Shown here: positions 2,743-38,910 of the stretch, in pieces | Numbering within the stretch: position 1 is the stretch's first letter | Layout of the letters: every line of letters begins with the position of its first letter | Source of the DNA: Escherichia phage PhaxI | DNA: 64,000 nucleotides | Sequence record: JN673056 | Strand: one strand, 5' to 3' | Program-made: the position numbers and the translations under genes | Notes under the pieces: generated by a model | Seen by the model: the letters and a program-made list of their open reading frames with translations, nothing else | What the model was told of the DNA's origin: nothing | Databases searched by the model: none

Positions 2743-2774
2743 TAGCCCCATTACCCCACAGTGAGAACTACAAG

Positions 2775-7898: not shown

Positions 7899-8473
7899 AT
7901 TTTCTAAAAACTATCTTCAACACATCATATGAACTCAGCCAGCGCGATCCTAATCGTTCTCCTGTGTTTGTATATTGCAAACTCGTGGAAGAGTCTTGTG
8001 AACTATCAGATGTGCTTTATGGAATCGCTGCATCCGAACCCCTGAACGGTGAAGTGGCGGACGTTATCATCTCGGCTCTGGATCTATTATATGTTGTGGA
8101 TTATCAACAAGTTCAACAACATGGGTCTATGACCAAAGAAGAAATCTTTGACTCCATGTTGTTTGCTTTGGCTACAGCCAATCACACAACTGATCTCAGC
8201 CAACATACGTTGGAGGATTATTGGTTCTGCAGTGGTGTTGAAACTATAGACAAATATCTTGCGATGGTTAATCATTACAAAGGCCGCATCACTCGTTTAC
8301 TGAACCAACCTCAACGTTCAGAAGATAATATGGTGGACCTGGTTTCAAATCTGATACGCAATACTGCCAAATTGGCGTGTGGATATAATCAAAACCATAT
8401 CAACACGATCGTTAAAGTGGAACATGCCATAGAACACAAAGTGGAAAAATGGCGCACTAAATTTGGTCTATAA
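7895..8473 (+). CDS. MazG-like all-alpha NTP pyrophosphohydrolase
   Basis: Motifs LVEESCELSDVL and EVADVIISALDLLYVV resemble the EExxE and E..D helices of MazG/dimeric dUTPase-type NTP-PPases. Confidence 0.4.
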   Translation: MNFLKTIFNTSYELSQRDPNRSPVFVYCKLVEESCELSDVLYGIAASEPLNGEVADVIISALDLLYVVDYQQVQQHGSMTKEEIFDSMLFALATANHTTDLSQHTLEDYWFCSGVETIDKYLAMVNHYKGRITRLLNQPQRSEDNMVDLVSNLIRNTAKLACGYNQNHINTIVKVEHAIEHKVEKWRTKFGL

Positions 8474-15337: not shown

Positions 15338-15634
15338 ATGAAAGAGCAAGAAATTATCCAGCATTGTATTCGCTTAGGAACATTAAAACCTCTCTATCAG
15401 GCTTTGCGTTTCAATGCCATTAAATTCAAACCTTTACCAAGAACTATTGCAACGTTCTTTGCCATGCGTTCTGTTGGAAAAACGATTTTCTTTGAGCATG
15501 ACATTTATTTTTATACAAAGATTAATGGCGAAGATTTAGATAAAATGATTTTCGTGAACGACGATAAAAATATGAAGATAAAAGTGGAAAACGAATTGCG
15601 CAGGATAAATGATTCTTTAAGAGGAATATTTTAA
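15338..15634 (+). CDS. hypothetical protein
   Basis: 98-aa ORF. Confidence 0.4.
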   Translation: MKEQEIIQHCIRLGTLKPLYQALRFNAIKFKPLPRTIATFFAMRSVGKTIFFEHDIYFYTKINGEDLDKMIFVNDDKNMKIKVENELRRINDSLRGIF

Positions 15635-16296
15635 TGGAAATTGTTGTCTCAATATCTGATTGTGATTTTGTATACCGTGTTCTTCAAGGGGATGCTCCAT
15701 TGCCGGAGAATAATCAAGAAGTGACGTTGTTCTGGTCTGGTGGGGTGGATAGCACATACATGTTGATTTGGTTGTTATCGAAAGGATATTCAGTTCATAC
15801 TGTGTATTGCCACCTCGAAAATAATAAATTTAAATCTAAACGCGAAAATTGGGCGAGGAATAAAATACACAACTGGATTAATAAAAATGCCCCACTTCTC
15901 ATGTATCGTTGGACACATCATCAAGAACCTATCAGTAGCATCAACGTCCCGAACGGTGGTTTTCGCGCTTGTTTAGCACAAGCCCCGATATGGTTATTAA
16001 ACACGCAATTTAAAGGCAGTGGCTTGCCTTCCACGTATATCTTGGCATATGTTAACGGCGATGACGCAATACACTGGATACCCGCCTTTAATAAAGTTAT
16101 TGAAGGATACAACATGATGACCAGAGACGGGGAAAGATCTATTGAAATTTTATATCCATTGATTAGTCTCAAGAAATCTTGGTTCTATCATCACATGTCC
16201 CCAATACATGACTTAATGACATGGTGTGAATTGCCAATTTTGAAAAAGAATTGTGATTGTCCTGCGTGTGTTCGACATCGCCATGAGTTATCATAG
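15634..16296 (+). CDS. PP-loop ATPase, QueC-like (7-cyano-7-deazaguanine synthase family)
   Basis: PP-loop SGGVDS in LFWSGGVDSTYML; C-terminal cysteine cluster TWCE...NCDCPACVRH resembling the QueC zinc site; about 220 aa like QueC. Confidence 0.5.
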   Translation: MEIVVSISDCDFVYRVLQGDAPLPENNQEVTLFWSGGVDSTYMLIWLLSKGYSVHTVYCHLENNKFKSKRENWARNKIHNWINKNAPLLMYRWTHHQEPISSINVPNGGFRACLAQAPIWLLNTQFKGSGLPSTYILAYVNGDDAIHWIPAFNKVIEGYNMMTRDGERSIEILYPLISLKKSWFYHHMSPIHDLMTWCELPILKKNCDCPACVRHRHELS

Positions 16297-16298
16297 AG

Positions 16299-16640
16299 AT
16301 GAAACGTTCAGTTGTTGTAAATGACATCACGAGATTGATAAATCTTATCAAAGACGTCTTCCCACAACAGGTGGATGTTGAGTATGTTGGGAAGAACGGA
16401 AAGTGCTATCAGGTTGCTCTGGTTCTGAAGCATGTGTATCCTCAAGCAGAGATCCATTACAGTCAGATCGAAGGTCATGTATACACTCTGATTGATGGGA
16501 ATTATTATGACATCGAAGGCATTCACTTCAGTGTTCCTCCCGATACGTGCTTATTGGAACATAATAGAGGTCACAAACCGCATCGCTGGCATAAAGGGTT
16601 TGTGAACGTACCGATTTTAGAATGGCTGAGGAAACCATAA
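16299..16640 (+). CDS. hypothetical protein
   Basis: 113-aa ORF; stop overlaps the next start (TAATG). Confidence 0.4.
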
Positions 16641-17200
16641 TGGCGGGAATTGTAAAGCACCTTGGTGACACTCATCTTGGGCATAAGAAGGTCTTTAAAC
16701 CGCGTGGATTTGATACACAGGAAGCCCATGACGCTGCGGTCATTGACAGTATCTTTCAGGGGTTGAAGTCTCGGGACGTTCTTGAACTGGCTGGTGATAT
16801 ATGCTTCATCGGGGCTGAAGGGTTCATTCGCCTGATGCGGGAGGGTGCCAAGCGAAACATTGATGAGTTTAAGCGACGCCCCGTCCCCGATGACTGGCGT
16901 CCGAACTTTATCATCAGGGTGGCACAGGGCAACCACGATAGCTTTAAGATGCTGTTGTCTTTGTATATGGACGGCTGGATTAGCTCCTTCGGCGCTATGT
17001 ACGAACGTGACACGCCTGTTGGCCGTGTGTTGACAACACATGTTCCTTATCAATTAGACCGTTGGGCGTATAATATCCATGGTCATCTTCACGAAAATAT
17101 TCGCGAAGAGCGCGAATACCTGAACTGCAGTTGGGAACAATTCAAGCGTCCTGTAACCCTGGCTGAGTTGTTATACACAAATTTAGGAATTGTGCTATGA
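16640..17200 (+). CDS. calcineurin-like metallophosphoesterase
   Basis: Metallophosphatase motifs [22 protein letters not shown] and IHGHLHE in the canonical order. Confidence 0.65.
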
Positions 17201-17876: not shown

Positions 17877-17897
17877 TATTTTAGGTTATTGAAGAAA

Positions 17898-17925
17898 GGG
17901 GAAGGTATACTTCCCCTTAATTTAT
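17898..17925 (+). terminator. terminator-like hairpin
   Basis: GGGGAAG-GTATA-CTTCCCC followed by TTAATTTATT. Confidence 0.5.
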
Positions 17926-17939
17926 TGGGAGAGACAAAC

Positions 17940-18281
17940 ATGATTTCATTAAAAGAAATGTACGAACGCCTCGAAGAACTGAAATCTAAAGAACGTCTGT
18001 ATTCAGAAGAGAATGCAGAAATGTCAGATCTTATCGAAAAAATTGCGTTGCGTGAAAAGTATCTTCAACGTTATATCAATCAATCACCTCACATTGTTGA
18101 ACGTGTGAACGTTGAACTGGAAAAACTGTCCCCAATCACGTATGACAAATTGGGTATGGATAAAGTCCACACGGCTATCTCTGGTGTTGTGAACTCTATG
18201 TTGGCGTTGGGACAAGTATTTGGTCGCCAGGACCATGATGATCTTATTTTCTACATTGAGAAAAATGTGGTGGTCAAATGA
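17940..18281 (+). CDS. hypothetical protein
   Basis: Track ORF begins at TTG inside the terminator; first ATG 17940 (MISLKEMY...) preceded by GGGAGAGAC. Confidence 0.4.
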   Translation: MISLKEMYERLEELKSKERLYSEENAEMSDLIEKIALREKYLQRYINQSPHIVERVNVELEKLSPITYDKLGMDKVHTAISGVVNSMLALGQVFGRQDHDDLIFYIEKNVVVK

Positions 18282-18685
18282 AACGTTATCGCCTGAAGTT
18301 TGAGTTAACTCGAAGGGAAGACAACGAACTCATATATGGGGAAATTTTCATATATGATCCTTATGATACGGAATACACTGAATGGCTGAAGATAATATTG
18401 GCTGGTGAAGTCGATAAAGTATACCGTGCCATTGAAAAGGACGCCAAAGGGGTATTAAGTTTTGGTCATCTTCGAGTAGCGGCCATGATTGGTTCAGCTT
18501 TAGAAATAGTGTCTGAAGCGATAGCCATAGATCTACCAGGGGAACATATCTTCATCCGTGAATCTAAAGTTGATATGGCAACGAATTATGTGATGAAATT
18601 GACCTTGACAGAAAATATGGAAAATAACAAACCAAGTATTTTCCGCCGTTTCATGAACAAATTAAAGGGTGTTAAAAATGATTAA
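18278..18685 (+). CDS. hypothetical protein
   Basis: 135-aa ORF. Confidence 0.4.
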   Translation: MKRYRLKFELTRREDNELIYGEIFIYDPYDTEYTEWLKIILAGEVDKVYRAIEKDAKGVLSFGHLRVAAMIGSALEIVSEAIAIDLPGEHIFIRESKVDMATNYVMKLTLTENMENNKPSIFRRFMNKLKGVKND

Positions 18686-19196
18686 ACCACGAATGATGTT
18701 CGCCCATATGCGATCAGCTGCAGCATATGGTGTAACCAGTTATGCTCGGCGTCTGCAAGTCGGTTGTGTTATCGTAAACCCTGAAACTGATCAGCCTGTG
18801 GCTATCGGATGGAACGGAACGCCTCCTGGCATGCCGAATGTTTGTGAGATGGAACAACACGGGCAAATTGTTACAAACCCGTGTGTCATTCATGCGGAGG
18901 AAAATGCTCTAATGCGTATCCCCGAAAATGCAGATGATTTCACAGGGTTGGTTATGTTTGTGACACATAGCCCATGCCCTGATTGCACTCAGAAGATCAT
19001 CGACAATGGCAAGATCGATAAAGTATATTATCAAGAGCCATATCGTATCATGGATGGAATCAAAAGATTGATGAACTCCGGAATTGAAGTTTACCGGATG
19101 GTGGGCGATATGGCAATCCTTAAACACGTTTTCGACGATCAAGGCGAAGTCGGATACGAACAAATCTTATCCAACCCAGACAAAGTAAGGAATTAA
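18678..19196 (+). CDS. cd: dCMP deaminase
   Basis: Zinc-binding deaminase motifs HAEENAL and SPCPDC; ATG 18678 preceded by AAAGGGTG. Confidence 0.75.
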   Translation: MIKPRMMFAHMRSAAAYGVTSYARRLQVGCVIVNPETDQPVAIGWNGTPPGMPNVCEMEQHGQIVTNPCVIHAEENALMRIPENADDFTGLVMFVTHSPCPDCTQKIIDNGKIDKVYYQEPYRIMDGIKRLMNSGIEVYRMVGDMAILKHVFDDQGEVGYEQILSNPDKVRN

Positions 19197-20489: not shown

Positions 20490-21458
20490 ATGGCGAATTT
20501 CAAGTCGACCATCGATAAGATCAAAGTTCTGAACACAAAAGGCTTGGCCAAGTCTCAGAAGCAATTGGTCTATCCATTAGACATAACAGGGGGTAAAACC
20601 CTCGGTCATTATGTTCTATTCAACATCAACCGAATATCTGGTTCTTCATATGGGGACACCACAACCCAAACCGTCGAAAATCCGATACAAAATCCATTGG
20701 GTAAGACTCCTGTGGTTTATGGTTCTAAATCGGGGTCTATTAGCAAATATGCTTGGGCGCGTCATGTCCGCTCTAACGAGTCAATTGTGTTGTGTATGCC
20801 CGAATCCATTACAACCAACTATGGCGTTGGTTGGAACGGCTCCGAGTTGGGATTAGCAGGTATGGGTGCCCAATTCTTATCACGCGCCGCCCAAGATATG
20901 AGTCAATTCAAACTTGGGGATGCCTTGAATGTTGGAAAAGAAATGGGGAGAATTGCGGCAACAAAGGCCATTCAATCTGCTTCGGAAGCAATTCCTTTTC
21001 TGCCGACAATTAATGCTCATGATACATTAGAATTGTTTACAGGTACAATGACCAACCCGTATGTGGAGATGATTTTCCAAGGGGTGCGCAACCGAGAAAT
21101 CCCGTTCACATTCAAATTCACTCCAAGATCGCAAAAAGAGGCGAAAATGGTGCGGGAGATTATCCGTTTATTCAAGATGCACATGTATCCAGAATACAAA
21201 TACAACAAGAATTCCAGCGCATTCTATCTTCATCCATCCACGTTTGATATCACGTTCATGGTCCAGGGAGAACGCAACAAATGGTTGCATCGGATATCGA
21301 CTTGCGTCCTATCAAATATGTTTGTCAACGAGACGCCTGACTCTTCATATGCCGTACACAAAGATGACAGTATCGTGTCGACACAAATCGACATGACGTT
21401 TATAGAACTAGAACCGTTGCACAAAGGCCGCTTTGATACCGAAGGCGACAGCTTCTAA
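20490..21458 (+). CDS. baseplate/tail-tube junction protein (gp48/gp54 family)
   Basis: 322-aa ORF; segment FTFKFTPRSQKEAKMVREIIRLFK resembles the conserved motif recalled for T4 gp48/gp54; located beside gp53. Confidence 0.4.
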   Translation: MANFKSTIDKIKVLNTKGLAKSQKQLVYPLDITGGKTLGHYVLFNINRISGSSYGDTTTQTVENPIQNPLGKTPVVYGSKSGSISKYAWARHVRSNESIVLCMPESITTNYGVGWNGSELGLAGMGAQFLSRAAQDMSQFKLGDALNVGKEMGRIAATKAIQSASEAIPFLPTINAHDTLELFTGTMTNPYVEMIFQGVRNREIPFTFKFTPRSQKEAKMVREIIRLFKMHMYPEYKYNKNSSAFYLHPSTFDITFMVQGERNKWLHRISTCVLSNMFVNETPDSSYAVHKDDSIVSTQIDMTFIELEPLHKGRFDTEGDSF

Positions 21459-21471
21459 GGAGAAAGATGCC

Positions 21472-22029
21472 ATGAAATATTTTGAGAAATTTCCACTCGT
21501 GTGGCATCAATTAATTGGTGTCAAAGAGGATGACCAAGTCCTGTTGCAGAACTTAACACGACGGGTTATGGTTGTTAAGAAAATTAGGGACATAGAAGGG
21601 CTTCTCCTGCCGTATACTGTTTTCGATGGGGAAACCCCAAGGTCTTTTGCCGAACGCGTCTACGGTTCCTTCGAGCTGTTTTGGATCCCATGTCTTATCA
21701 ATGGTATCATGGACATCACAGAGGACTGGCCAAAACCAGAGCGCCGTATCATTGAAGAACTGACGGCTCGATACGGCCTTGACGGAATGTGGGATGTGAA
21801 ATACTACGTTGACGAATTCGGTCATGAAACAGATCCTAGAGCAATACGTTTAGCATATGGCCTTGGTTCTATGGATGATTCCACGATTATCGCCAACTAT
21901 GGCCTGACAGGTATTACATATCATGATGATGCTATAAACAAAAACGAAGCCAAACGGAATATTCAGGTTCTAGACCCAGATTATGTTTCTTCCTTTGTTA
22001 ATCAGCTAGAACAGGAGCTGACCAAATGA
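21472..22029 (+). CDS. 53: baseplate wedge protein (gp53-like)
   Basis: ATG 21472 after TAAGGAGAAAG; segment TPRSFAERVYGSFELFWIPCLINGI resembles the LysM-like region of T4 gp53. Confidence 0.5.
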   Translation: MKYFEKFPLVWHQLIGVKEDDQVLLQNLTRRVMVVKKIRDIEGLLLPYTVFDGETPRSFAERVYGSFELFWIPCLINGIMDITEDWPKPERRIIEELTARYGLDGMWDVKYYVDEFGHETDPRAIRLAYGLGSMDDSTIIANYGLTGITYHDDAINKNEAKRNIQVLDPDYVSSFVNQLEQELTK

Positions 22030-23414
22030 TCGAAAATAAAGAATCCCAGGACGGAATTTTAACTCCGTCCACAACATTTGATTTGAAATATATGGCGATA
22101 TTACCGCACACGCCTGAAGGCGGTACTCCCAAGCCTTATGACCTTTCATCGTTGTTTCAAGAATTCAACGTATATCAGGATCTTGGTCTGGAAGGGAATG
22201 CATCACCGTCGTTGACAGCTAATATTCTGATCAAAGAAGGCTGGGATATATTGGATACAATGCCAATCCTCGGAGGTGAGGAAGTAGTGGTATCGTTCAA
22301 ATCACCTGCGGCTTCCGACTACACTACGCTTTCATTGCGAGTCAGTCGGGTGGGGAGAGTTGCTGACGAATCGAACTCTTCTTCGAAAAAGGCATTCTGG
22401 TTGCACTTGGTGACAACAGACGCGTATCGAGATAGCATGTTGCGTAAATCTGTTGGATTAAGCGGTTCTTATTCTGAGATGGCAGCTAAAATCTTTGAGC
22501 AACTGAATTCACGCACCAAATTTGAAGACATAGATCCTTCATATGGGATACAAGAAAGGTTCGCTACCCCTCTTTGGCCTGTACTCCGCTCCATAGATTA
22601 TATGGCCAGCCGTGCATATGACGAATTATTCATGCCATTCGTTTTCTATGAAGACTTTACGGGTTATCACTTCAAAAGCATGACGACGTTGTTCAACCAG
22701 GGCAACCAGTCTATGACTGCTGAAGAGAAGCAAGAGGCTTCTATTGAAAAGAAATTCTTCCGAGACCCTCAAGACGCGCCGTTGATGCAGGATAACAATT
22801 TCAACTCAGAACGTTTCATGCGGACTATAATCAAGGCTGAAAAGAAACTGGCGCGTGATCAGTACATGGCGAATTATCGGGATATCTTGGCAGTGAACGA
22901 GCGCGTGTATGACTTTAGTACAAAATCCACGACAGCGACCCAACGCATTTATTCAGAATGGTTTGACAGCACTGCTCACCTTGATCCGTTCCCTTTGTTC
23001 TCGGATCAATTTGATCGTGAAAATGTTCGTTATATCGAGGCACAACCAGATGGAGCTGAACAAATAGATTATGCTCGCCGCGTAATAGAATTCAGTCTAG
23101 CATCTACGGTTATGCGTTTGCTCGTGGTCGGCGATAACCGCCTGAACGTTGGTCAGGTTTATTATATTGAAGATTTGTCGAACCGCCCGAAATCTAATGA
23201 AAACATTGCCGAGTTAAGTAAGTTATCAACAGGCCATTATATCGTCACAAAGATACGCCACAAGATTTCACGCCTGACAAATGATTATCAATGCGTCGCT
23301 GAGATTGCCAAAGATAGTATGATCCAGAAGGTCTTACCGCCTCAGACTGGTCAAACTGTGGCTTCTACACCAACTCCGACGCCAATAGAGAAAGGACAAG
23401 CCCAGAAGGTCTGA
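22026..23414 (+). CDS. putative baseplate hub / structural protein
   Basis: 462-aa ORF inside the morphogenesis operon between gp53 and the tape-measure-like gene; no motif recognised. Confidence 0.3.
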   Translation: MIENKESQDGILTPSTTFDLKYMAILPHTPEGGTPKPYDLSSLFQEFNVYQDLGLEGNASPSLTANILIKEGWDILDTMPILGGEEVVVSFKSPAASDYTTLSLRVSRVGRVADESNSSSKKAFWLHLVTTDAYRDSMLRKSVGLSGSYSEMAAKIFEQLNSRTKFEDIDPSYGIQERFATPLWPVLRSIDYMASRAYDELFMPFVFYEDFTGYHFKSMTTLFNQGNQSMTAEEKQEASIEKKFFRDPQDAPLMQDNNFNSERFMRTIIKAEKKLARDQYMANYRDILAVNERVYDFSTKSTTATQRIYSEWFDSTAHLDPFPLFSDQFDRENVRYIEAQPDGAEQIDYARRVIEFSLASTVMRLLVVGDNRLNVGQVYYIEDLSNRPKSNENIAELSKLSTGHYIVTKIRHKISRLTNDYQCVAEIAKDSMIQKVLPPQTGQTVASTPTPTPIEKGQAQKV

Positions 23415-23424
23415 GAGGTGACAA

Positions 23425-23470
23425 ATGGCAGATAACAATCAACCGACATGGCAGATAACAATCAACCGAC
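23425..23470. repeat. perfect 23-bp tandem duplication (2 copies) containing the start codon of the downstream gene
   Basis: ATGGCAGATAACAATCAACCGAC occurs twice back to back; the first copy carries the RBS (GAGAGGTGA) but is out of frame (23 nt shift). Confidence 0.9.
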
Positions 23471-25388
23471 ACCAGGGCAGCAAGACATCGTCAAGGTTTT
23501 GGATAAAATCAAAAAAGAAATGATGGAGCGCAAGCAATTGCGCGCCCAATCCGAGACGAATAAACAGCTCGCAGATGTCAACAAACAACTGCAATCTCTG
23601 AAGACACGCCAGGCGTCTAATCAGGAGCAGAAAGTCCCGCCAATTAAATTCCCATCGGTGAATGATATTGTTGGTGGGTTTGTCCGCGTCAGTCCTATTT
23701 TCACAAGGGATTACAGCACTTGGATGAAAGACACCGTCAGTCTTTCCAAGGACGGAAATGAAGAACTGATGCGAATCGCAACCAAAATAGAAAAATTTGG
23801 CGAAGCGGCGAATGGTCCGGTTGACGACATGTCAGTTGAATATCTTGACATGATATCAGATCAATTGGGCGCGGCCAACGAAGATAGTCTTGAACGCCTT
23901 GATGGATTAAAGGATAAGCTGGCGTTGGTCGGAGGGGAGATCGTAAACCTGACTGACATAATGCTTCAAACGCATAAGGACACGCTGGATTTCAATAAAG
24001 ATGCCAGTAACGAAACTGTTACCCGCCTCGACAGCATTGATGACAAATTGGGATACATGAACGAAGATCTTAATGATACTCTGACACGTATCTATGAAAG
24101 TGATCAAAAATATAGAGAAGAAGAGAAATTCCGTCGTGGCGAAGAAGGTAAGGAAAACAAGAACAACCCAGAGGCTGGTTCTATCCCTCCGTCTGAGCCT
24201 AAACAAGATGGTCAATCTTCTGGGTTAGGCGCGGCGCTGGGGGCACTCCTTGGACTGGGTGCGTTAAAACTCCTGATGTCCCCATTAAAACTTGTTGGTG
24301 GCTTCATTAAATTATTCATGGGGTTTGGTGCTGGGATCGGCGGGTTACTTGCGCCTCTGAAAGCAGCAACCAAGATGCTTCGAGTTGGACCTCTGGCGTT
24401 AATAACATCTGTATTTGAATTCGGTAAAGGTTTCTTTAATGCTAAAGAAATCCTTGGTAAAGCGCAAGTATCGATCGTTGATCGGGTTCAGGCAGGGATA
24501 ACAGAGCTGGTCGGTAGTTTCGGGGATCTCGCTGATTGGGTTGCTGAAATATTCGGATGGAACAATGCTGGGTTTGGAAAGGCGTTCCGTGAACAAGTGC
24601 TGAAAATGACCGAAGCGCCCGTGCGTTGGTTGAACTCGATTGTTGATTGGGTCACCAACGATTTGTTTGCGGGTATCGGGAAGAGTACATCACTGACCGA
24701 AATCCCTGGTAAACTTGCAGACAACTTACAAGGCCAATTGATAAAATTGGTTGATTGGGTAACGGGCGGGATATCGGGATTGATTGATGATGGCATGGCG
24801 GCTGCAAATAAAGTCGTTGAAGATATGAAGAAAGGATTTGCGGAAAACGTGAAGAAACCATTCTTTAATATGTTGAATGCCATAACCAATGCCATGTTTG
24901 ATATCGTGGATAAATTCGTGAGTATCATACCTGATGCTCTGGGTGGTGAAGCAGCCAGGAACAAAATGGCGGAAGCAAGACAGTCTATGCTAATCAGCCA
25001 AGACGATAAGGCTCCTGAGAATGCGTCTACGCCGCCAAGCAGCCAATCACCAGCACAACCCAATGCCAATATCAGCACGTTAACTCCAATGCCTTCTGGG
25101 GTGTCCTCAGACGCTGTCAACGTTACGGATAGAACTTCACAATTGAAAGACGCATACGCAGGGATTGGGGGAGGTACTCTGGGCGGGGCTTATCCGGTTC
25201 AAGGAAGAGCAGCCAATAACATCGAAGAAGTTAAATCCGCCTATGCTAACCCGCCAGCCAGTGTTGTGGTTCCAGTACAACAAAATGTGGACAACTCGAA
25301 GAAAGTCAGTACGACGAACAACTTCAATAGTTCACAGTTGGAGCCGTCCAACCGTACTGATACAGGGCGCATTCTCTGGGATTGGTAA
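23448..25388 (+). CDS. tail tape-measure-like protein (gp29-like)
   Basis: 646 aa; N-terminal coiled coil, glycine-rich hydrophobic segment (GLGAALGALLGLGALKLL...GFGAGIGGLLAPL) and internal repeats (LADWVAEIFG, IVDWVTNDLFAG, LVDWVTGGISG). Confidence 0.45.
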   Translation: MADNNQPTPGQQDIVKVLDKIKKEMMERKQLRAQSETNKQLADVNKQLQSLKTRQASNQEQKVPPIKFPSVNDIVGGFVRVSPIFTRDYSTWMKDTVSLSKDGNEELMRIATKIEKFGEAANGPVDDMSVEYLDMISDQLGAANEDSLERLDGLKDKLALVGGEIVNLTDIMLQTHKDTLDFNKDASNETVTRLDSIDDKLGYMNEDLNDTLTRIYESDQKYREEEKFRRGEEGKENKNNPEAGSIPPSEPKQDGQSSGLGAALGALLGLGALKLLMSPLKLVGGFIKLFMGFGAGIGGLLAPLKAATKMLRVGPLALITSVFEFGKGFFNAKEILGKAQVSIVDRVQAGITELVGSFGDLADWVAEIFGWNNAGFGKAFREQVLKMTEAPVRWLNSIVDWVTNDLFAGIGKSTSLTEIPGKLADNLQGQLIKLVDWVTGGISGLIDDGMAAANKVVEDMKKGFAENVKKPFFNMLNAITNAMFDIVDKFVSIIPDALGGEAARNKMAEARQSMLISQDDKAPENASTPPSSQSPAQPNANISTLTPMPSGVSSDAVNVTDRTSQLKDAYAGIGGGTLGGAYPVQGRAANNIEEVKSAYANPPASVVVPVQQNVDNSKKVSTTNNFNSSQLEPSNRTDTGRILWDW

Positions 25389-26051
25389 TCAAATTCCGTG
25401 GGCAAGGATTAGCTCACGGAGTTTTCCTTTTGTGTATTCTGTGTTTTCATCAGGAACAACTGAATTGGTTTTCTTTAATAAAAAGGACTCAGAGTTCCAA
25501 TAGATGTCATCCTTGAGTATTGTATCATATAAATGGATGAACCCCACTACTTTATTCAATCCAACTAGAAACCAAATTGGATAGCGTTTAACAATAATAT
25601 CTGTCAGTAAAGGTGGATGCCCATTACCATTTCCTTTGATATATTGGATAAAATTCACGCCTCTTTCTTTTATCTCAGGGATCATATATCTCTCAAAATG
25701 TTCAAGAAAATTATATGAGAAGTTGTCATACAGGCGGCGATATTCATTATAATTTTCTTGAGCCTGACGGGTGAGTAATGTTGTCACCCATGTTTTTGGT
25801 GATTTAACAAAGTTGGCGATGATATAATTTTCCACCACTTCACCCTGGGAAGATTCAAACCGACGAGCAAGTTTGGCAAATTGTTTGGCCACACCCTGTT
25901 TAGAATAGAACGTTTCAAACTTGTAATTGTTCATCGGCCCATACAGGCCATAATCAAAATCTTTGGTGGTGAAATGCAACTTGATCGCCATATATATGCA
26001 ATAAACGTTAAATGCACGTTCGTATTGCATTTTCTCCCACTCAGTTATCAT
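25389..26051 (-). CDS. 59: helicase loader (gp59-like)
   Basis: 220 aa; pattern Y.IY.AIK.H...D...Y and spacing resemble T4 gp59 (217 aa) as recalled. Confidence 0.45.
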   Translation of the reverse strand: MITEWEKMQYERAFNVYCIYMAIKLHFTTKDFDYGLYGPMNNYKFETFYSKQGVAKQFAKLARRFESSQGEVVENYIIANFVKSPKTWVTTLLTRQAQENYNEYRRLYDNFSYNFLEHFERYMIPEIKERGVNFIQYIKGNGNGHPPLLTDIIVKRYPIWFLVGLNKVVGFIHLYDTILKDDIYWNSESFLLKKTNSVVPDENTEYTKGKLRELILAHGI

Positions 26052-26192
26052 GGCGTTTCTCCCTGCTTTTCTGTTTCTGTAATCTGCTGCGTTCAGAACA
26101 GAACTGATTGAACTCCGTCACCAAGCCTTTCTCCTTTATAAAGAGAATGGCGTTTCGAAGCAATTCCAATCTTGGCATATGACGGCGGATTT

Positions 26193-26456
26193 TTACCAAC
26201 CACGTGATCTCTCCTCTGTGCGAACGAAACGTTGAAACTCTTCTGTCTTCCCTTGTCGGTGAATAAAAACCAACGCCAGAATAAAACGCCGAAAAGATTT
26301 TGGGATAAGACGATAACCGTTTGTCCAATTATAGACAACGTCAGAACAATTCATCATCTTCATCATCTGTAATTCAGAAACTCCCAATTCCCTCATAATG
26401 TTTATGAGATTAAGAGAATCATTGTCTTTCCTTGGTTTCTTATCAATAAGTTTCAT
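26193..26456 (-). CDS. HTH DNA-binding protein
   Basis: 87 aa; LINIMRELGVSELQMMKMMN helix-turn-helix-like segment. Confidence 0.4.
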   Translation of the reverse strand: MKLIDKKPRKDNDSLNLINIMRELGVSELQMMKMMNCSDVVYNWTNGYRLIPKSFRRFILALVFIHRQGKTEEFQRFVRTEERSRGW

Positions 26457-31729: not shown

Positions 31730-33160
31730 TTAACCGAAATTCCAATTATTCACGGTCTCGGCTTTCTTGACATCATTTGCGTCGCCTGTTTTGTTTAAGT
31801 CATGTTTGATATGAACATTCTCAACATAACGGGCTTCCTCTTCTGTCAGGTCTCGCTTGACTTCATTCCAATCCAAGTCAAACAATATCTGTTTATCTTG
31901 ATCCATACCGAACAAGAACGATTTGAGTTTCTGTTTATTGGCATAACGGTTTTTCAAGATAGACGCTCGGGCTTTCTTAACAGCCGCCAGTTCATCAGGG
32001 GCATAGAACGCCATGATGAAGTCTGCAACCTTCGGAATACCGATAGCATCTGCCAGGTCGCTAATATCACCATCAGTCGCCGATTGTTTTTCACGGTTAA
32101 ATTGCATACCTGTCCATACAGGGCAATCAAATTCAAATCCAAGCGCACGGAATTCACGCGCCACCGACGTATAATACACGTTGGTGTTCTGCATTAAATG
32201 GGCAGGAAGGCGAGAAGACGCTGATTCACCCAAGTAGTCTATAATAATGACGTCCGGCGTAATTCCCGTGGATGTCGCATAATCAAGGATATCGCGGCGA
32301 TATAGTCCTGTATGCCCAGCGCCTGAAGGATATTCCTTGATAACAATATCACCCTTCATGGAACCGTCTTGACGAGTTCGCAACTTTTGTATCGTGGCGA
32401 CATATTCATGTCGTGAGAGCTTCTCTAAGGACTCGAAGTCCCTGCGCATCATACGGGCATCAAGGCGGTGACGCCAGACGTTCTCAGCCACTTCTAGGGT
32501 GAATACGAATACGTTCAACCCTTGCTCGGAGTAACCAGCAGCCAAATCAATCAGAGTTGTTGTCTTACCCGCATTAATTGCACCCGTCACGATGTTCAGC
32601 GTTTTCTTACCAACACCACCACGAGTCGCTTTGTTGAATATCTCTACAGCGAAAGGAATCTTCGCTTCATTAGAGTTCATGTGGTCGTATTGTTGTTCAG
32701 CCATTTCCCAATAGATATGGCCAAGATAAGAATCAAAACTTATCGCCAACGCCTCTTGTAGGAGAGTTGGAATCGTGTTCATCTCATCTTTACGTTTCTC
32801 ATCACCATAGATGTTGACGGCGTGTTTGATCGCATTATGAACAGCTTTCTGCCGCGCCCAACTTTCTGTTTCTTTTACAAGCCATTCCTGATGGAATGTG
32901 TTGTCATTGATATTCTCAAGAGCAGAAATAGCTTGTTCAAATACGTGTTCGTTGAGCGAAGTCTTTTCCAGCATAATAGACAACGCTTCAACCGAAGGAC
33001 GAGCATTATATTCGCAAGTGTAATGGTCAATGAGACCGAATATAATTTTCTCGCCTTCGTTATCGAAATAATCGGCTTTCAAATACGGCTGGATCTTTCT
33101 TTGATATTCTTCGTTATAGATTAATTGGGAAAGCACGACAGATTCGAGTAACATTGGCAA
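31730..33160 (-). CDS. 41: replicative DNA helicase (DnaB-like, gp41)
   Basis: 476 aa; Walker A GAINAGKTTTL; size and domain order like T4 gp41. Confidence 0.85.
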   Translation of the reverse strand: MPMLLESVVLSQLIYNEEYQRKIQPYLKADYFDNEGEKIIFGLIDHYTCEYNARPSVEALSIMLEKTSLNEHVFEQAISALENINDNTFHQEWLVKETESWARQKAVHNAIKHAVNIYGDEKRKDEMNTIPTLLQEALAISFDSYLGHIYWEMAEQQYDHMNSNEAKIPFAVEIFNKATRGGVGKKTLNIVTGAINAGKTTTLIDLAAGYSEQGLNVFVFTLEVAENVWRHRLDARMMRRDFESLEKLSRHEYVATIQKLRTRQDGSMKGDIVIKEYPSGAGHTGLYRRDILDYATSTGITPDVIIIDYLGESASSRLPAHLMQNTNVYYTSVAREFRALGFEFDCPVWTGMQFNREKQSATDGDISDLADAIGIPKVADFIMAFYAPDELAAVKKARASILKNRYANKQKLKSFLFGMDQDKQILFDLDWNEVKRDLTEEEARYVENVHIKHDLNKTGDANDVKKAETVNNWNFG

Positions 33161-33490
33161 CTACCCCACCAAAATTTTGTTGTAATCCTGAGCATTTTGC
33201 TGTATCAGATCAACTAAGATATCCCCAGACACCACAGTGAACAAGTCATTTTCTTTCAAATTAACAAATAACAAACGCCATGGTTTCTTCAATATATCTG
33301 TTGTAAAGGATAACCGAGGCTCTCCATTGTCTAAATGGACACCCACTTTCCCTATACGAAATTGAACGCCGCGGAATTTGCCTTCCGTTATTTCGATTAT
33401 TGCTAACTGATCAGAACCAGGGTCGATGATTTTGTAATTAACGGGGGAGTCTCCTCCCCCTGCAATATTACTCGGTTGTTTTGATGACAT
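33161..33490 (-). CDS. hypothetical protein
   Basis: 109-aa ORF between uvsX and gene 41. Confidence 0.4.
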   Translation of the reverse strand: MSSKQPSNIAGGGDSPVNYKIIDPGSDQLAIIEITEGKFRGVQFRIGKVGVHLDNGEPRLSFTTDILKKPWRLLFVNLKENDLFTVVSGDILVDLIQQNAQDYNKILVG

Positions 33491-34553
33491 TATCGAGGCG
33501 CTCCAGCATATCTGCAGGCATAACCGAACTCTGAGAGATACCGAACATGTTGTTCACATCGTCAACAAAGTCTGGGTTTTCCAGCAGCGGATACCAGAAG
33601 TCATCCCCCAGCTCTGCCTTACGATATTTCTTTTCTTTTTCTGGATCAAACCCGCCTTTGGCAGTGCGTTGATACCAAGAACCACTCACCAAATCCACAT
33701 ACCCCAGCATGCGCGCAATTTCTAACATACCGGACCAACGGTCAATACCGCCTTCATACAACACAGTGACAGGGAACTTGGCTTTTTCACGGACAAAGCG
33801 GCCTTTCATAATGTTGACTGTAAACTGCCATCCCAAAAGGTCTTTGTCTTCTTTAACTTGAGAACGCGTGATGAACCACAATTGGTTAGAAGACAGGAAC
33901 CCCTGTTTACCGCCTTTGATGTTCGGCTCGGCGTATTGGTTCCCGATTTCATCATAGTACGAGTTGATCCATACCAAAACGAATTTCTTTTCAGTGACCA
34001 ACGGGGTGATAACACGCCAAAAACTATTGAGAGCGCGAGCGCGGGTCATATCTTGCGTGTCTTTGCCCGCGATGGCATCATCAACTTCTTTGGTAGACGG
34101 CAACTGGCTGATTGAGTCAATGAATACGATGATCTTGTCACCTTTCTGTGCATCGTTCAGAAGCTGTGTCAGCTTGATCTTCGTCTTTTCAACGTTTTCA
34201 ATCGGCAGATACAAGACACGGTCCATGTCAATACCCATAGATGTCCAGTAGTTTTCATTCGCACCGCCTTCTGAATCCGCGAAGATACAAATTGCATCAG
34301 GAAACTTATCCATGTAAGCCTTAACATCCACCAGCCCAAACATGGTTTTGAATGTACGAGAATCCCCCACCAACTGTTTGATGCCTGATATCAGACCACC
34401 ATCAATACGACCGGACCAGGCCAAATTCAGAATAGGAATACCCGTACTGCAAATAATGTCAGGCTTCAGCGCATCGGTCTTTGACAGCACTTCGGCATTC
34501 GGGTCCAGTTTCTTTGCTGTCTTGAGCATGCGAGCCATCAATGAATCGGCCAT
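33468..34553 (-). CDS. uvsX: RecA-like recombinase UvsX
   Basis: 361 aa; Walker A-like GDSRTFKT; segments FIDSISQLPSTKE and KFPVTVLYEGGIDRWSGMLEIA resemble T4 UvsX as recalled. Confidence 0.8.
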   Translation of the reverse strand: MADSLMARMLKTAKKLDPNAEVLSKTDALKPDIICSTGIPILNLAWSGRIDGGLISGIKQLVGDSRTFKTMFGLVDVKAYMDKFPDAICIFADSEGGANENYWTSMGIDMDRVLYLPIENVEKTKIKLTQLLNDAQKGDKIIVFIDSISQLPSTKEVDDAIAGKDTQDMTRARALNSFWRVITPLVTEKKFVLVWINSYYDEIGNQYAEPNIKGGKQGFLSSNQLWFITRSQVKEDKDLLGWQFTVNIMKGRFVREKAKFPVTVLYEGGIDRWSGMLEIARMLGYVDLVSGSWYQRTAKGGFDPEKEKKYRKAELGDDFWYPLLENPDFVDDVNNMFGISQSSVMPADMLERLDNVIKTTE

Positions 34554-35068
34554 TTCGTTTCCTCTTGCTTGTTGATCGTAATTAATAAATCGGTGCCCAA
34601 GACTTTCTTGGACAATATATTGATTGCTTCATGAATCGCCATTATTGACGGGAGTTTTTCATCGTTAATTTCGGAACCCCCGCGTTCTGTTAAATACATA
34701 TTACGCAGACGATTGTGCTGTGCCCTGTTGACACAAGAAACATTCAATGCGATATTCAGGATATACATCATTTGTTCAGTTGTAACATCCTTTGGAATAG
34801 CATGAACATAATATATCGCATCTTCAAAATAGATATGCTGTAATGACTCTGGAATTTCTTCCCCGCCAAAAGCAAAATCTTCAATGCGTTTAAAAAGTGT
34901 TTCCGGCTCTGGTGTTGTAATATGTTGCGTTACAGTAGCCGCACCATCTGGTTCTTTGTTGAATTTGGTCGCGATAACGACATGTCTGCCAGGTTTAATA
35001 AACTCAGCAAAGTTCTGTGCCATTTGCGGGGCGTGTTCCGCGTAATATGATACGACGACTGTAAACAT
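34538..35068 (-). CDS. hypothetical protein
   Basis: 176-aa ORF. Confidence 0.4.
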   Translation of the reverse strand: MFTVVVSYYAEHAPQMAQNFAEFIKPGRHVVIATKFNKEPDGAATVTQHITTPEPETLFKRIEDFAFGGEEIPESLQHIYFEDAIYYVHAIPKDVTTEQMMYILNIALNVSCVNRAQHNRLRNMYLTERGGSEINDEKLPSIMAIHEAINILSKKVLGTDLLITINKQEETKWPIH

Positions 35069-35613
35069 TAGAACTCCAGAGTCAAAGGGGTTTCCGCGGA
35101 CTTATCATAGTTCGCACCGCCAGCAGCACGTAGACGATTGCGATCGTTCTTGCGCTTGTGGGCCAGCATGTAGGTCTCAGCATCCAGCCCCAAATATCCG
35201 CAAGCCGCTGCCAAGAAGGTAGCCAAAACATTCCGAAGAGGGTGTGACATGAAATACGTGAACAGTTCAGTCACTTTCCTGAGGTCGTGAGGGGTTTGAA
35301 TTGGCTGCGCCTGAACGAATCTCACCATTTCGGGAATATCGTGTGGTTTGTCTTCCTCCTGCAGGACAGCACAGAGCATGAAGTGAACAACGTCCACCAA
35401 CTCGTATATGGCATCCACTTGTCGCCAATGCTTACCACCCCCATAGATCTTCCAGTCTATGGTTGTTTCGTCTAGAAACTCTGCCCACTCACGATAGATG
35501 GAGTTTGCTATCGCCACTTCGGTCCAGCGCTTCTTCCACTCTTCCCCAAAATAGGCCACGTTGGTGGCCTTTTGAAGTTCGAGCAGACTTTTAATATGCT
35601 CTGCTGTGATCAT
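35068..35613 (-). CDS. all-alpha NTP pyrophosphatase (gp56 dCTPase/dUTPase-like)
   Basis: Segment YELVDVVHFMLCAV resembles the ELVD..HF helix recalled for T4 gp56 / MazG-like NTPases. Confidence 0.45.
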   Translation of the reverse strand: MITAEHIKSLLELQKATNVAYFGEEWKKRWTEVAIANSIYREWAEFLDETTIDWKIYGGGKHWRQVDAIYELVDVVHFMLCAVLQEEDKPHDIPEMVRFVQAQPIQTPHDLRKVTELFTYFMSHPLRNVLATFLAAACGYLGLDAETYMLAHKRKNDRNRLRAAGGANYDKSAETPLTLEF

Positions 35614-36194
35614 TTCCGATCCCTATAAAATTTGACGAACGGTTGCCAACCTTCAAACGGATTGACAAATTCATAATCAACTTCCATCTTATCAATGAAA
35701 GCCTCAATGTCATCCTCTATGATACCACCGCGATCCGCCTTTGAAATGCGGGTGATGGGACATTTAGTGCTCAGCGCCCATTCATATTCCTGAGGGGTGC
35801 GCAAATCACTCACGATATAATGAACGTGTGGGTTCTGTTCCACCAAAGGAAGTTGATATCGTTTAAAGAATGACAGAAACAGGTCTGGTTGTACGTAACG
35901 CAAGCCCGTATCGCTGCCGAGATGAAGCCAGATCTGCCTTGGGGTTAATCCCTTGGGGTTATCTGGGTGAACATATGGCAAGTCCTTGATGTCGTCCTCC
36001 ACCTCCGCTGGTAGCCATGGGTAGATGAAATTGGCGACACGTCGCAGTTCATCTGAGAAAGACAGACGACGAATATCCTTATCACCCTGAATATGATGAA
36101 ACCTGATCAGGGACTCCAAACAGAAGTCCTTGCCGGAGCGCTTGCGCCCCGTGAAGAATTCAAGGTTCTGGTACATCATTCGCCATACCCCCAC
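35610..36194 (-). CDS. 1: deoxynucleoside monophosphate kinase (gp1-like)
   Basis: P-loop FFTGRKRSGKD resembles T4 gp1 LSGVKRSGKD. Confidence 0.65.
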   Translation of the reverse strand: MGVWRMMYQNLEFFTGRKRSGKDFCLESLIRFHHIQGDKDIRRLSFSDELRRVANFIYPWLPAEVEDDIKDLPYVHPDNPKGLTPRQIWLHLGSDTGLRYVQPDLFLSFFKRYQLPLVEQNPHVHYIVSDLRTPQEYEWALSTKCPITRISKADRGGIIEDDIEAFIDKMEVDYEFVNPFEGWQPFVKFYRDRK

Positions 36195-37219
36195 ATAAAT
36201 TTCTGATCAACAGGGGAATGTAGTAATGCAGTACGAAGACCGTCATCAGCGATACGGCGTTTGTCAATTTTGGTATCATTGAGTCGACACCACAGGCAAT
36301 ATGACATATCCATCATCAATCCCGTGTCTGCTTGATATCCTTTCAGATGTTCTCTGATTTTACCAAAATCACTGCCGATGTCACAGTGATGTAACACGCC
36401 GAGGAATAGATTACAAATATCTTTTTGGGACTTCACTTTTTCTGAAGAGAATTCCAGCAAAGAATTATACATCCCAGAAGAAGTTTTGGTCTTCTTAGTG
36501 ATACCCCCGAGTTGTTTCCGACTAACTTCATTGTTGTAATAATGAAGATTGTTAGAAAACAGTTTGTAATACCCAACTTCGACATTCAGCACTTTCGCCA
36601 GAACTTCTTGCAGGATAGAGAATTCAATGAAATTGATTGAACTCATGCCCCACAAGACATCTTGGCTGCGGTTAATGACAGTGATATTCAATCGCCCTTC
36701 TGTTATACTGAACAATAGAGCAAGATTACAGATCATGTCCTTGGTCTTGGCTTCTCCAGTTTCACTATGGGTGGCCAAACCTTCATCTGAGTCCAGCGCC
36801 GGATCATAGATGGTGAGATACGCCTGACGGGTGTTGGGATTATTACGCAGACGGCTGATGACACTATCCAACTGGCCATTATTGTACAGACGTGGGCCAT
36901 ACGCGCCTCGCCAGGTTACACCGTCATCAGAGAAGTTGGCGGCGCGGGGTAAGACTTTCGAAAGGAAACGGATATCATTACGTCCGGACAACACCCAGAA
37001 TGTCTCACCGATGGCAGCAATTGCCGACGAGTTGCGGCCTTCAACGGAAAGCCAACGGTCACGTGGATCTGATACTGTAATTGTTACACCATCAATGAAA
37101 CGAGTGCCGTCAGTGTTAATCTCTGCGTTGCCAGGATCTGACTCAATGCCGTGTTCACGGATGGCCAACACAGCCTTCTTCAGCATATCATTATTGTTTA
37201 AAGCAAAAATTTCCATCAA
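36176..37219 (-). CDS. thymidylate synthase-superfamily pyrimidine hydroxymethylase (gp42-like), with C-terminal extension
   Basis: RQAYLTIYDP (like gp42 RRGIMIYTRP), catalytic-Cys motif DMICN (like gp42 DFMCTN, unlike TS PPCH) and NRSQDVLWG (like gp42 MRSNDVVFG); 347 aa versus 246 aa for T4 gp42. Confidence 0.6.
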   Translation of the reverse strand: MMEIFALNNNDMLKKAVLAIREHGIESDPGNAEINTDGTRFIDGVTITVSDPRDRWLSVEGRNSSAIAAIGETFWVLSGRNDIRFLSKVLPRAANFSDDGVTWRGAYGPRLYNNGQLDSVISRLRNNPNTRQAYLTIYDPALDSDEGLATHSETGEAKTKDMICNLALLFSITEGRLNITVINRSQDVLWGMSSINFIEFSILQEVLAKVLNVEVGYYKLFSNNLHYYNNEVSRKQLGGITKKTKTSSGMYNSLLEFSSEKVKSQKDICNLFLGVLHHCDIGSDFGKIREHLKGYQADTGLMMDMSYCLWCRLNDTKIDKRRIADDGLRTALLHSPVDQKFMWGYGE

Positions 37220-37890
37220 TCAATACTCCCAAAATCACGATTGAGAAACGCAAAAACAGCCTGCTCTATAGTCAGGCCATTGGACTTCATCATACCTGCG
37301 GGAACGGTAGGGAACAAGCCTTTATGCCGTTGGCGGTGGTCATGAACTCTCTCCCACTTCTCGACCACCAGGCTTTCATTGAAGTCTGCGCCGCCGTTGC
37401 GTGATTTCACACGGGAAACACAGGTTTCAAGCGGGGTGTCCATGAAGAGCACGACTAATTCGCGCGGTGGGCGCGTCAGGCGGGGAATCCATGAGCTGAG
37501 CAAAGTTGAAGGGATGATTCCTTCAAACAACACGTCATATTTCAGATATTCCGGCTGATCAGCAATGGACAAGGCGAACAACATCTGCTCGGTATCTTTC
37601 AGGGAATCAACACCTTTAGACTTAGACTTGTCATATTTACCAATACAGATAATGTTATAGGAAGGGCAAACTGTGAGCATGATCTTGCCATTGTAGGTCA
37701 CGACATACGCCTGAGGATCATTCTCCGCCAGATAGGAAGGGACAGTGGACTTGCCGCTACCGTTGGAGCCTTTAACGTAATACAACTCTCCTCGTGCCGG
37801 ATATTCCCCTTCGACAGCAGGTGGTTTTACAAACAGATGTACGGGGCGCTTCAACAACCCTTTGAGCGAATACGACATGGTGTGCTCCAA
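37216..37890 (-). CDS. P-loop kinase (polynucleotide-kinase-like Walker A)
   Basis: Walker A VKGSNGSGKSTV resembles the T4 Pnk kinase domain (GCPGSGKST); no phosphatase domain. Confidence 0.5.
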   Translation of the reverse strand: MEHTMSYSLKGLLKRPVHLFVKPPAVEGEYPARGELYYVKGSNGSGKSTVPSYLAENDPQAYVVTYNGKIMLTVCPSYNIICIGKYDKSKSKGVDSLKDTEQMLFALSIADQPEYLKYDVLFEGIIPSTLLSSWIPRLTRPPRELVVLFMDTPLETCVSRVKSRNGGADFNESLVVEKWERVHDHRQRHKGLFPTVPAGMMKSNGLTIEQAVFAFLNRDFGSID

Positions 37891-37950
37891 TAAACAAAAG
37901 GAGCTGCTATTATAGCAGCCCCTTCATCTATTGAATGCTTCTGAGTTAAA

Positions 37951-38910
37951 TTACGCAGCAGCTTTCGCTTCGGCCAACGCCTGAGGTAGCCATTCGTTGA
38001 TAGCCTTTACCAGAGATTCAGCGTCAGTTTCTTTGATTTTCTGACGCTTGGTGAATGACTTACCATTCACATACAGACTGAAACCCCAGCCGCCGGAAAC
38101 GATAGGCGCCAGATCAACATAGGTGTTAGTGCGGGCATGCGGATTGGCTTCGTCTGCCAATTCAGTGACAGGGAACTGGAACCAGCGCATATCAGGGTTC
38201 ACATAACTCAAATATACTTCAGGAGTAACCCCTGCTTCAACCGCCGCCAGGATTGGACCATAGTTAGAAGCACGAGCCGCTTCAACCATTTCTTCACGCT
38301 TGTTATGACGACGCTTGCGTTCTTCGGTAGAAGATGCAGGGCGCATTTCAGAAGATTTCTTGGCCAGAACCGCCTTCGCGTTCGCTAAAGCCTGATCATC
38401 CTTCGGATTTTCAACGTCGGCGATTGCTTCAGCAACGGTTGTGCCCAGCATGCGACGGCGAACTTCTTCAGCACGGGCTTGCGCTTCTTCGTCAAGAACT
38501 TCTTCGCCTTCAACTACCAGGGAAATGGAACCGTCTTTGTTGACTTCAAGAGAACCGTCTTCGACGGTCTGGGAATTTTGATCACCGACAGGTTGCCCAA
38601 CCGTTTCTTCGGCGTCAATCACCGGATTTGATTCACCGTCGCCCTGTTTAACCCCCGCATCTTCGGTCGGTTTAACTTTTTCGGCTTCAGCGCGGTCAAG
38701 AGCTTCGAGAGTTTCTTCTTTCTCTTCCTGGCTCAGACCTTCAATGAGTTCAAAGCCGTTGGCTGACTGGAGGACGCCTTCCATCATACGGCGTAATGTT
38801 ACATTGCCAATGATAAGGTCTGCACCTTTGATTTCTGCTTGAAGATCAGCAGCGGTTTTACCATCAATTTCAAATTTCAGGCCGGACTCGATATGAAGAA
38901 TATAGGACAT
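37951..38910 (-). CDS. hypothetical acidic protein
   Basis: 319-aa ORF with long Glu/Asp-rich linkers. Confidence 0.45.
   Translation of the reverse strand: MSYILHIESGLKFEIDGKTAADLQAEIKGADLIIGNVTLRRMMEGVLQSANGFELIEGLSQEEKEETLEALDRAEAEKVKPTEDAGVKQGDGESNPVIDAEETVGQPVGDQNSQTVEDGSLEVNKDGSISLVVEGEEVLDEEAQARAEEVRRRMLGTTVAEAIADVENPKDDQALANAKAVLAKKSSEMRPASSTEERKRRHNKREEMVEAARASNYGPILAAVEAGVTPEVYLSYVNPDMRWFQFPVTELADEANPHARTNTYVDLAPIVSGGWGFSLYVNGKSFTKRQKIKETDAESLVKAINEWLPQALAEAKAAA

Follow-up and report, generated by a model that had tools for sequence, protein, structure and literature searches.

Which base of the phage DNA is altered by a compact run of nucleotide-metabolism genes in Escherichia phage PhaxI, and how far is that alteration carried once the DNA has been replicated? 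The genes in question lie on the minus strand at 35068–37890 of the stretch analyzed here, 64,000 nucleotides of sequence record JN673056 (hereafter the window), as four consecutive, overlapping open reading frames (ORFs) for a P-loop kinase, a thymidylate-synthase homologue, a deoxynucleoside monophosphate (dNMP) kinase and an NTP pyrophosphohydrolase of the all-alpha dimeric-dUTPase family. An earlier interpretation made without database searches (the sequence-only reading) had taken them for the core of a pyrimidine hydroxymethylation pathway. The ORFs are indeed present with family matches far beyond chance, the motifs it had listed (DMICN, NRSQDV, GMSSINF and GSNGSGKST, with PPCH absent) all occur where it had placed them, and the core itself holds, the four genes being near-identical copies of genes of Salmonella phage ViI (Vi01). 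We consider it very probable that the module constitutes the pre-replicative half and the first post-replicative step of a ViI-type thymidine hypermodification pathway in a Kuttervirus.

The window is collinear over its whole length with positions 1–65424 of Vi01 (NC_015296), starting from rIIA at position 1 and with 80–90% identity, and judged by this alignment it covers the initial 64 kb of a Kuttervirus genome. The gp63–gp67 cluster of ViI shares gene order, orientation and overlaps with the cluster studied here, at protein identities of 89.5–99.7%; the deoxycytidine monophosphate (dCMP) deaminase, which the sequence-only reading had located at about 18.7 kb and which was recovered there, occupies the same upstream position, and the kinase is orthologous to the characterized gp67. 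PhaxI nevertheless represents another isolate, with approximately 89% nucleotide identity to ViI over the whole window compared to approximately 96% in this region, a dUTPase that diverges more than its neighbors, and downstream enzymes that the 64-kb window does not show. Many Kuttervirus (ViI-like, Ackermannviridae) phages match the region at 95–98% nucleotide identity, and 164 phage records contain 80% or more of it. As the gene set is that of ViI, whose pathway has been described in print (2018 and 2021), it represents a known system; the finding re-identifies known genes in another Kuttervirus isolate and carries little weight in itself. The correct biology had been recovered from the sequence alone, and the refinements added here concern the specificity for deoxyuridine monophosphate (dUMP) and the ordinary nature of a C-terminal extension.

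The kinase matches the PF18748 model (HMUDK_HMUD1) over its full length (profile positions 1–196 of 196; 387.1 bits against a cut-off of 27; E = 1.7e-116) and is 99.5% identical over 220/220 amino acids (aa) to Vi01 gp67 (YP_004327432, Vi01_061c). Purified ViI gp67 converts 5-hydroxymethyl-deoxyuridine (5-hmdU) in DNA to 5-phosphomethyl-deoxyuridine (5-PmdU), by transfer of a single phosphate from ATP (Lee et al. 2021, PMC8989533). Going by its sequence, the 220-aa protein is a 5-hmdU DNA kinase, abbreviated 5-HMUDK, as the sequence-only reading had suspected, the activity having been demonstrated only with the ViI orthologue. The Walker A motif of the window kinase, GSNGSGKST (aa 37–45, window 37744–37770), resembles that of polynucleotide-kinase-type enzymes, and a weak AAA_33 match (E = 1.1e-3, under the gathering score) points in the same direction, namely to a kinase that acts on DNA or RNA ends in repair and stands beside nucleotide-metabolism genes by coincidence. 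Against a PF18748 match that spans the entire profile, and near identity to an enzyme whose demonstrated substrate is a base within DNA, we give this explanation practically no credence.

Database labels would suggest something different again. RefSeq and PHROGs (phrog_800) list the kinase as 'terminase small subunit', experimentally validated members included, and PaMx11 gp49 (2522–3091 of the compared PaMx11 stretch), another validated 5-HMUDK, bears the same label, while the adjacent 346-aa protein is widely called a thymidylate synthase, in RefSeq and PHROGs too. Taken at face value, these names describe no modification module but an ordinary thymidylate synthase next to a small terminase subunit, and some route to thymidine must indeed exist, given that about 60% of the T in ViI DNA is ordinary and that the Vi01 annotation lists no further thyA or thyX. 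The terminase label, however, is refuted by the published kinase activity of gp67 and is a propagated error; the real small terminase of Vi01 (Vi01_162c) is encoded beside the large terminase at 111 kb. The second label fares no better. The protein does belong to the superfamily (PF00303; 54.4 bits against a cut-off of 24.3; E = 1.3e-14), matches phrog_3676 (E = 8.7e-183) and is 99.7% identical to Vi01 'thyA' (gp66), but none of the NCBIfam thymidylate synthase equivalog models is reached (32–53 bits against cut-offs of 108–405), the best ThyA equivalog score being 52.8 bits against a cut-off of 327 (NF002495) and that for TIGR03284 being 33.9 against 108.35. With scores so far below the cut-offs, we concluded that the protein is not a thymidylate synthase. 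In addition, His147 of thymidylate synthase is replaced, ICN standing in place of PCH, and the C-terminus is swapped for a helical region like that of MilA, so that the absence of a modification module appears very improbable. The orthologue already appears as 'deoxyuridylate hydroxymethyltransferase' in some GenBank records, and annotators can take from this analysis that the names 'thymidylate synthase' and 'terminase small subunit' are misapplied to the hydroxymethylase and kinase genes, respectively.

This leaves the question of which pyrimidine is hydroxymethylated. The sequence-only reading had called the enzyme gp42-like and, finding the alignment around GMSSINF ambiguous, had allowed for either dCMP or dUMP as substrate. 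Cytosine replacement as in phage T4 would assign dCMP hydroxymethylase activity to the thymidylate-synthase homologue and dCTPase activity to the NTPase, and would yield 5-hydroxymethylcytosine DNA that might be glycosylated. It can draw on the shared superfamily with T4 gp42 (PF00303), the missing PCH motif, which gp42 lacks as well, an NTPase assigned to the Pfam and PHROG families of T4 gp56, a genomic position that mirrors T4 41-uvsX-42, and MilA, a CMP hydroxymethylase, as best sequence match in the Protein Data Bank (PDB; E = 1e-17). The hydroxymethylase was compared at the level of individual residues in an alignment with E. coli ThyA, T4 gp42, PaMx11 gp51 and the SPO1-like CampHawk_138. 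Its motifs are DMICN (aa 160–164, window 36725–36739), NRSQDV (aa 182–187) and GMSSINF (aa 190–196). Cys163 falls in the column of the catalytic nucleophile (C146 in E. coli, C148 in T4), and Cys163, Arg183, Ser184 and Asp186 (RSxD) are invariant both in the five-enzyme alignment and in a set of 61 homologues. Asn195, the Asn of GMSSINF, shares its column with Asn177 of E. coli ThyA and with the Asn of the PaMx11 and CampHawk enzymes, whereas T4 gp42 carries Asp179, and it is conserved in at least 90% of the 61 homologues. In the thymidylate-synthase family, Asn or Asp at this position sets uracil versus cytosine specificity. Because Asn195 aligns with the Asn residues and not with Asp179 of gp42, the enzyme is predicted, from sequence and structure, to use dUMP rather than dCMP; specificity for dCMP was rejected on this column.

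The relationships of the protein point the same way. Beyond Ackermannviridae, its closest relatives come from phages of Vibrio and Maribacter and from the PaMx11/M6-like and the SPO1-like Bacillus phages, the last two groups being 5-hmdU phages, with T4-type gp42 and td far weaker: tblastn gave E = 2e-5 for gp42 compared to 8e-36 for PaMx11, alignment identity is 18% to gp42 compared to 28–30% to the PaMx11 and CampHawk homologues, and among PHROGs, phrog_3676 ranks before phrog_5131 (the PaMx11 type, E = 3.2e-60) and phrog_160 (the T4 gp42 family). The likeness to gp42 thus stands at superfamily level and gives way, in any closer sense, at the Asn195/Asp179 position. Cytosine replacement is further contradicted by the specificity of the adjacent kinase for 5-hmdU in DNA (PMC8989533), by ViI DNA, which contains canonical dC and a modified T (PMC5889632), and by Vi01, in which no glycosyltransferase is annotated, the collinear 1–65 kb included (a statement on the Vi01 annotation, as the window ORFs were not each scanned). 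Taken together, we regard it as extremely improbable. The product of the hydroxymethylase is probably 5-hmdUMP, considering the 5-hmdU-derived base in ViI DNA (PMC5889632) and the lack of any other candidate enzyme in Vi01. A literature search for the structure of a dUMP hydroxymethylase returned dinoflagellate papers only.

The sequence-only reading had also drawn attention to an extension of about 100 aa over gp42. The length is correct, the C-terminal helical region spanning approximately aa 235–346 (about 110 residues), but it is no peculiarity of this protein, being normal in its clade and in MilA: PaMx11 gp51 is 348 aa long and CampHawk_138 383 aa. An AlphaFold2 model built with 61 homologues reached a pLDDT of 93.9 and a pTM of 0.93, with helical residues 264–338 confident too. 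When the model was compared to the PDB with Foldseek, the CMP 5-hydroxymethylase MilA (5jnh/5b6d) ranked first (TMq 0.73, TMt 0.80, about 350 columns), whereas thymidylate synthases reached only a TMq of about 0.5 over 236–270 columns. Because MilA aligns with the entire model and the PaMx11 and CampHawk enzymes are equally long, we assign the extension, on the strength of this predicted fold, to a 'long-form' pyrimidine hydroxymethylase architecture that has already been solved; a novel C-terminal domain was rejected on the same evidence.

The remaining two enzymes are tied to T4 proteins at family level. The dNMP kinase falls into phrog_139 (E = 7.8e-48), to which T4 gp1 belongs as well, carries the P-loop GRKRSGKD (aa 11–18), of which GxKRSGKD is common to T4 gp1, and is 97.4% identical to Vi01 gp65 'dnk'. 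No NCBIfam match and no match to PDB entry 1DEK were obtained, the best PDB sequence having E = 0.12. The dUTPase-family enzyme matches PF08761 (dUTPase_2; 36.7 bits against a cut-off of 22.9; E = 6.4e-9; profile positions 2–159 of 162) and phrog_173 (E = 2.4e-42), and T4 gp56 belongs to the same Pfam and PHROG families. Its only PDB match is the dimeric dUTPase of C. jejuni (1w2y, E = 2e-4), to whose E46, E49, E74 and D77, which we take to be metal ligands, E42, E45, E71 and D74 align. Direct BLASTP of the dUTPase and the dNMP kinase against T4 gp56 and gp1 gave motif-level matches only, so that the link to these T4 families rests on common PHROG and Pfam models; the earlier terms 'gp1-like' and 'gp56-like' are borne out at PHROG family level.

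Assembled into a pathway, the dCMP deaminase and the dimeric-dUTPase-family enzyme would supply dUMP, the latter also holding dUTP, and possibly dTTP, low. The thymidylate-synthase homologue would then transfer a methylene group from methylene-tetrahydrofolate to C5 of dUMP via Cys163, with hydration in place of reduction giving 5-hmdUMP, which the gp1-type dNMP kinase would phosphorylate to 5-hmdUDP and host nucleoside diphosphate kinase to 5-hmdUTP, and the phage polymerase would place 5-hmdU into DNA. There, the gp67 orthologue is expected to transfer one ATP phosphate to the 5-hydroxymethyl group, giving 5-PmdU, before two enzymes encoded beyond the window, the serine:DNA transferase gp247 and the pyridoxal-phosphate-dependent decarboxylase gp226, would produce O-SerT and 5-(2-aminoethoxy)methyl-deoxyuridine (5-NeOmdU), respectively. 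The final base would guard the DNA from restriction. Reconstitution with ViI gp67, gp247 and gp226 yielded O-SerT and then 5-NeOmdU (PMC8989533), and 5-NeOmdU takes the place of roughly 40% of T in ViI, CBA120, CBA6 and 1.255.O (Lee et al. 2018, PMC5889632), in line with the earlier suggestion of a post-replicative hypermodification instead of T4-type glucosylation. Kinase activity and downstream chemistry have thus been shown experimentally by others for proteins that are 99.5% identical or orthologous to those present or expected in PhaxI, while the roles proposed for the dNMP kinase (5-hmdUMP phosphorylation) and the dUTPase (dUMP supply and removal of dUTP, perhaps also dTTP) follow by analogy with SPO1-type phages as summarized in PMC8989533. 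We predict that 5-NeOmdU is present in PhaxI DNA and that this DNA withstands digestion by many type II restriction enzymes.

Several points weigh against this assignment. The literature consulted gave no direct enzymology for the ViI-type hydroxymethylase, dNMP kinase or dUTPase, and we therefore infer their substrates. The dNMP kinase has no match to the Pfam DNMK model (PF21448) at E ≤ 0.01. Some 60% of the T in ViI DNA carries no modification (PMC5889632), and a route to that T must exist as well. Finally, ViI gp160 (aGPT-Pplase1), gp226, gp243 (a second kinase) and gp247 found no tblastn match in the 64-kb window, and a full pathway in PhaxI is assumed from synteny with Vi01. The genes for these four proteins lie at 87, 140, 149 and 151 kb in Vi01 (87–152 kb range); as the window ends at 64 kb, their absence is uninformative on pathway completeness.

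The features of the locus are compiled in Table 1. ATG starts were chosen to match the Vi01 annotation, whereas the sequence-only reading had used the longest ORFs; its four genes stand, while the likely true starts of the kinase, hydroxymethylase and dNMP kinase genes differ from those it gave and coincide with Vi01. Neighboring genes overlap by 1–4 nt, with the stop/start junctions TGATG, ATGA, ATGA and TAATG, which suggests translational coupling. The last of these junctions joins the stop of the dUTPase gene to the start of a gene for a phage ACT-like domain protein in the same orientation, through which the run continues to uvsX. The ACT-like protein is 92.6% identical to its Vi01 counterpart, and the position of its gene is kept in Mansal, Sa157lw and JA15 (Kuttervirus and Limestonevirus). 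ACT domains usually bind small ligands, and by its position the protein may belong to the module. Upstream, the cluster is bounded by a strong terminator-like hairpin, and the records of phages Maynard, Mooltan and Matapan carry a terminator annotation at the corresponding site. A promoter scan near the cluster start revealed sites no more numerous than shuffled sequences suggest, and no promoter is claimed.

Table 1 Genes and other features of the modification cluster and its surroundings in the window.
Feature	Position	Strand	Details
5-hmdU DNA kinase (orthologue of Vi01_061c, gp67)	37216..37878	-	220 aa; ATG start; GGAG ribosome-binding site upstream
Predicted dUMP hydroxymethylase, thymidylate-synthase superfamily (orthologue of Vi01_060c 'thyA', gp66)	36176..37216	-	346 aa
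Probable dNMP kinase, T4 gp1 type (orthologue of Vi01_059c 'dnk', gp65)	35610..36179	-	189 aa
All-alpha dimeric-dUTPase-family NTP pyrophosphohydrolase, T4 gp56 family (orthologue of Vi01_058c, gp63)	35068..35613	-	181 aa
Phage ACT-like domain protein (Vi01_057c)	34538..35068	-	176 aa; PF24021 E = 2.5e-86; phrog_3839, unknown function
Terminator-like hairpin, 13-bp stem then T-run	37897..37925	-	Between the 319-aa gene and the kinase gene
dCMP deaminase (Vi01_030, gp33)	18669..19196	+	PF00383 E = 5.4e-17; 94.7% identity to Vi01 gp33
319-aa acidic protein	37951-38910	-	phrog_3905, unknown function; no Pfam match; 100% identical to Vi01_062c over 310 aa

The cluster was also compared with further systems. 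The PaMx11/M6 clusters (gp49 5-HMUDK, gp51 hydroxymethylase) likewise hold a 5-HMUDK near a long-form dUMP hydroxymethylase (348 aa) with Asn at the specificity position, the PaMx11 and window hydroxymethylases sharing 28% identity only. In PaMx11, transferase, flavin adenine dinucleotide (FAD) lyase and acetyltransferase genes are clustered with the kinase gene, whereas ViI-like downstream genes are scattered, and the end products of PaMx11/M6 are 5-AcNmdU or 5-NedU compared to 5-NeOmdU in ViI-like phages. MilA from Streptomyces rimofaciens shares with the window protein the C-terminal helical region that is absent from thymidylate synthase and T4 gp42, but the two are only 20% identical, and MilA acts on CMP in antibiotic biosynthesis, whereas in the window protein the Asn is of the uracil type and the context is that of phage DNA precursors.

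With T4 gp42, gp1 and gp56 the cluster has a logic in common, in that the canonical dNTP is depleted and a dNMP is hydroxymethylated and then phosphorylated, and the kinase and NTPase belong to the same PHROGs (139 and 173). In contrast, gp42 is 100 aa shorter and has Asp179 where Asn195 is found here, the post-replicative step of T4 is glucosylation and not the base phosphorylation expected here, and the dNMP kinase of the window fails the Pfam DNMK model. The neighborhood is similar as well: at 31730–37878 of the window, the order gp41 helicase, small ORF, uvsX and, further along, hydroxymethylase mirrors 41-40-uvsX-(segA, b-gt)-42 in T4 (20612–26219), and this T4-like order places the hydroxymethylase in the ancestral gene-42 slot. 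The gene for the DNA-base kinase lies upstream of the hydroxymethylase gene, on the opposite side from T4 b-gt.

The dUTPase deserves separate mention, as it is only 89.5% identical to Vi01 gp63 and more divergent than the neighboring proteins. Residues 1–57 and 141–181 hardly vary from one Ackermannviridae subfamily to another, Dickeya phage JA15 included, and the catalytic motifs fall into these invariant termini and into invariant residues 70–80 (E71, D74). The central segment of about 60 residues (approximately aa 80–140, window approximately 35192–35441) is hypervariable and wholly different between close relatives, to the extent that no nucleotide alignment exists between the window and S115 over 35192–35441. 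In S115 and Sa157lw, the dUTPase is 65% identical to that of the window compared to 99.4–99.7% for the hydroxymethylase, and across the phage collection the dUTPase is mostly 60–80% identical, whereas the hydroxymethylase often exceeds 90%. The cassette of S115 and Sa157lw resembles that of the distant Dickeya phage JA15, and since cassette variants are distributed at odds with the phylogeny of the genes on either side, the cassette appears to be horizontally exchanged. The sequence pattern suggests cassette exchange or diversifying selection. One could speculate, though we consider it rather unlikely, that a variable surface is under diversifying selection, either because it is recognized by a host defense or inhibitor or because it serves a second, signaling role like the variable regions of staphylococcal phage Dut, or else that the cassette tunes specificity for dUTP, dTTP or dCTP and thereby the fraction of T that is replaced.

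A few further observations concern other parts of the window. Just upstream of the dCMP deaminase gene, the interval 18100–18681 comprises about 580 nt compared to about 160 nt in Vi01, and the additional ORFs at 17889–18281 and 18278–18685 have no Pfam match; Vi01 16394–16841 (Vi01_025) has no counterpart in the window. A 220-aa protein encoded on the plus strand at 15634–16296 shows weak matches to QueC and ThiI PP-loop ATPases (E = 4e-5 and 8e-5) and is the equivalent of Vi01_023, annotated as 'QueC-like queuosine biosynthesis', the known modification of such phages being on thymidine. At 7895–8473 (plus strand) lies the orthologue of Vi01_011 (73% identity), which has no Pfam match at E ≤ 0.001 and carries the RefSeq label 'MazG-like pyrophosphatase'; it could act as an additional nucleotide pyrophosphatase with a bearing on the editing of dNTP pools.

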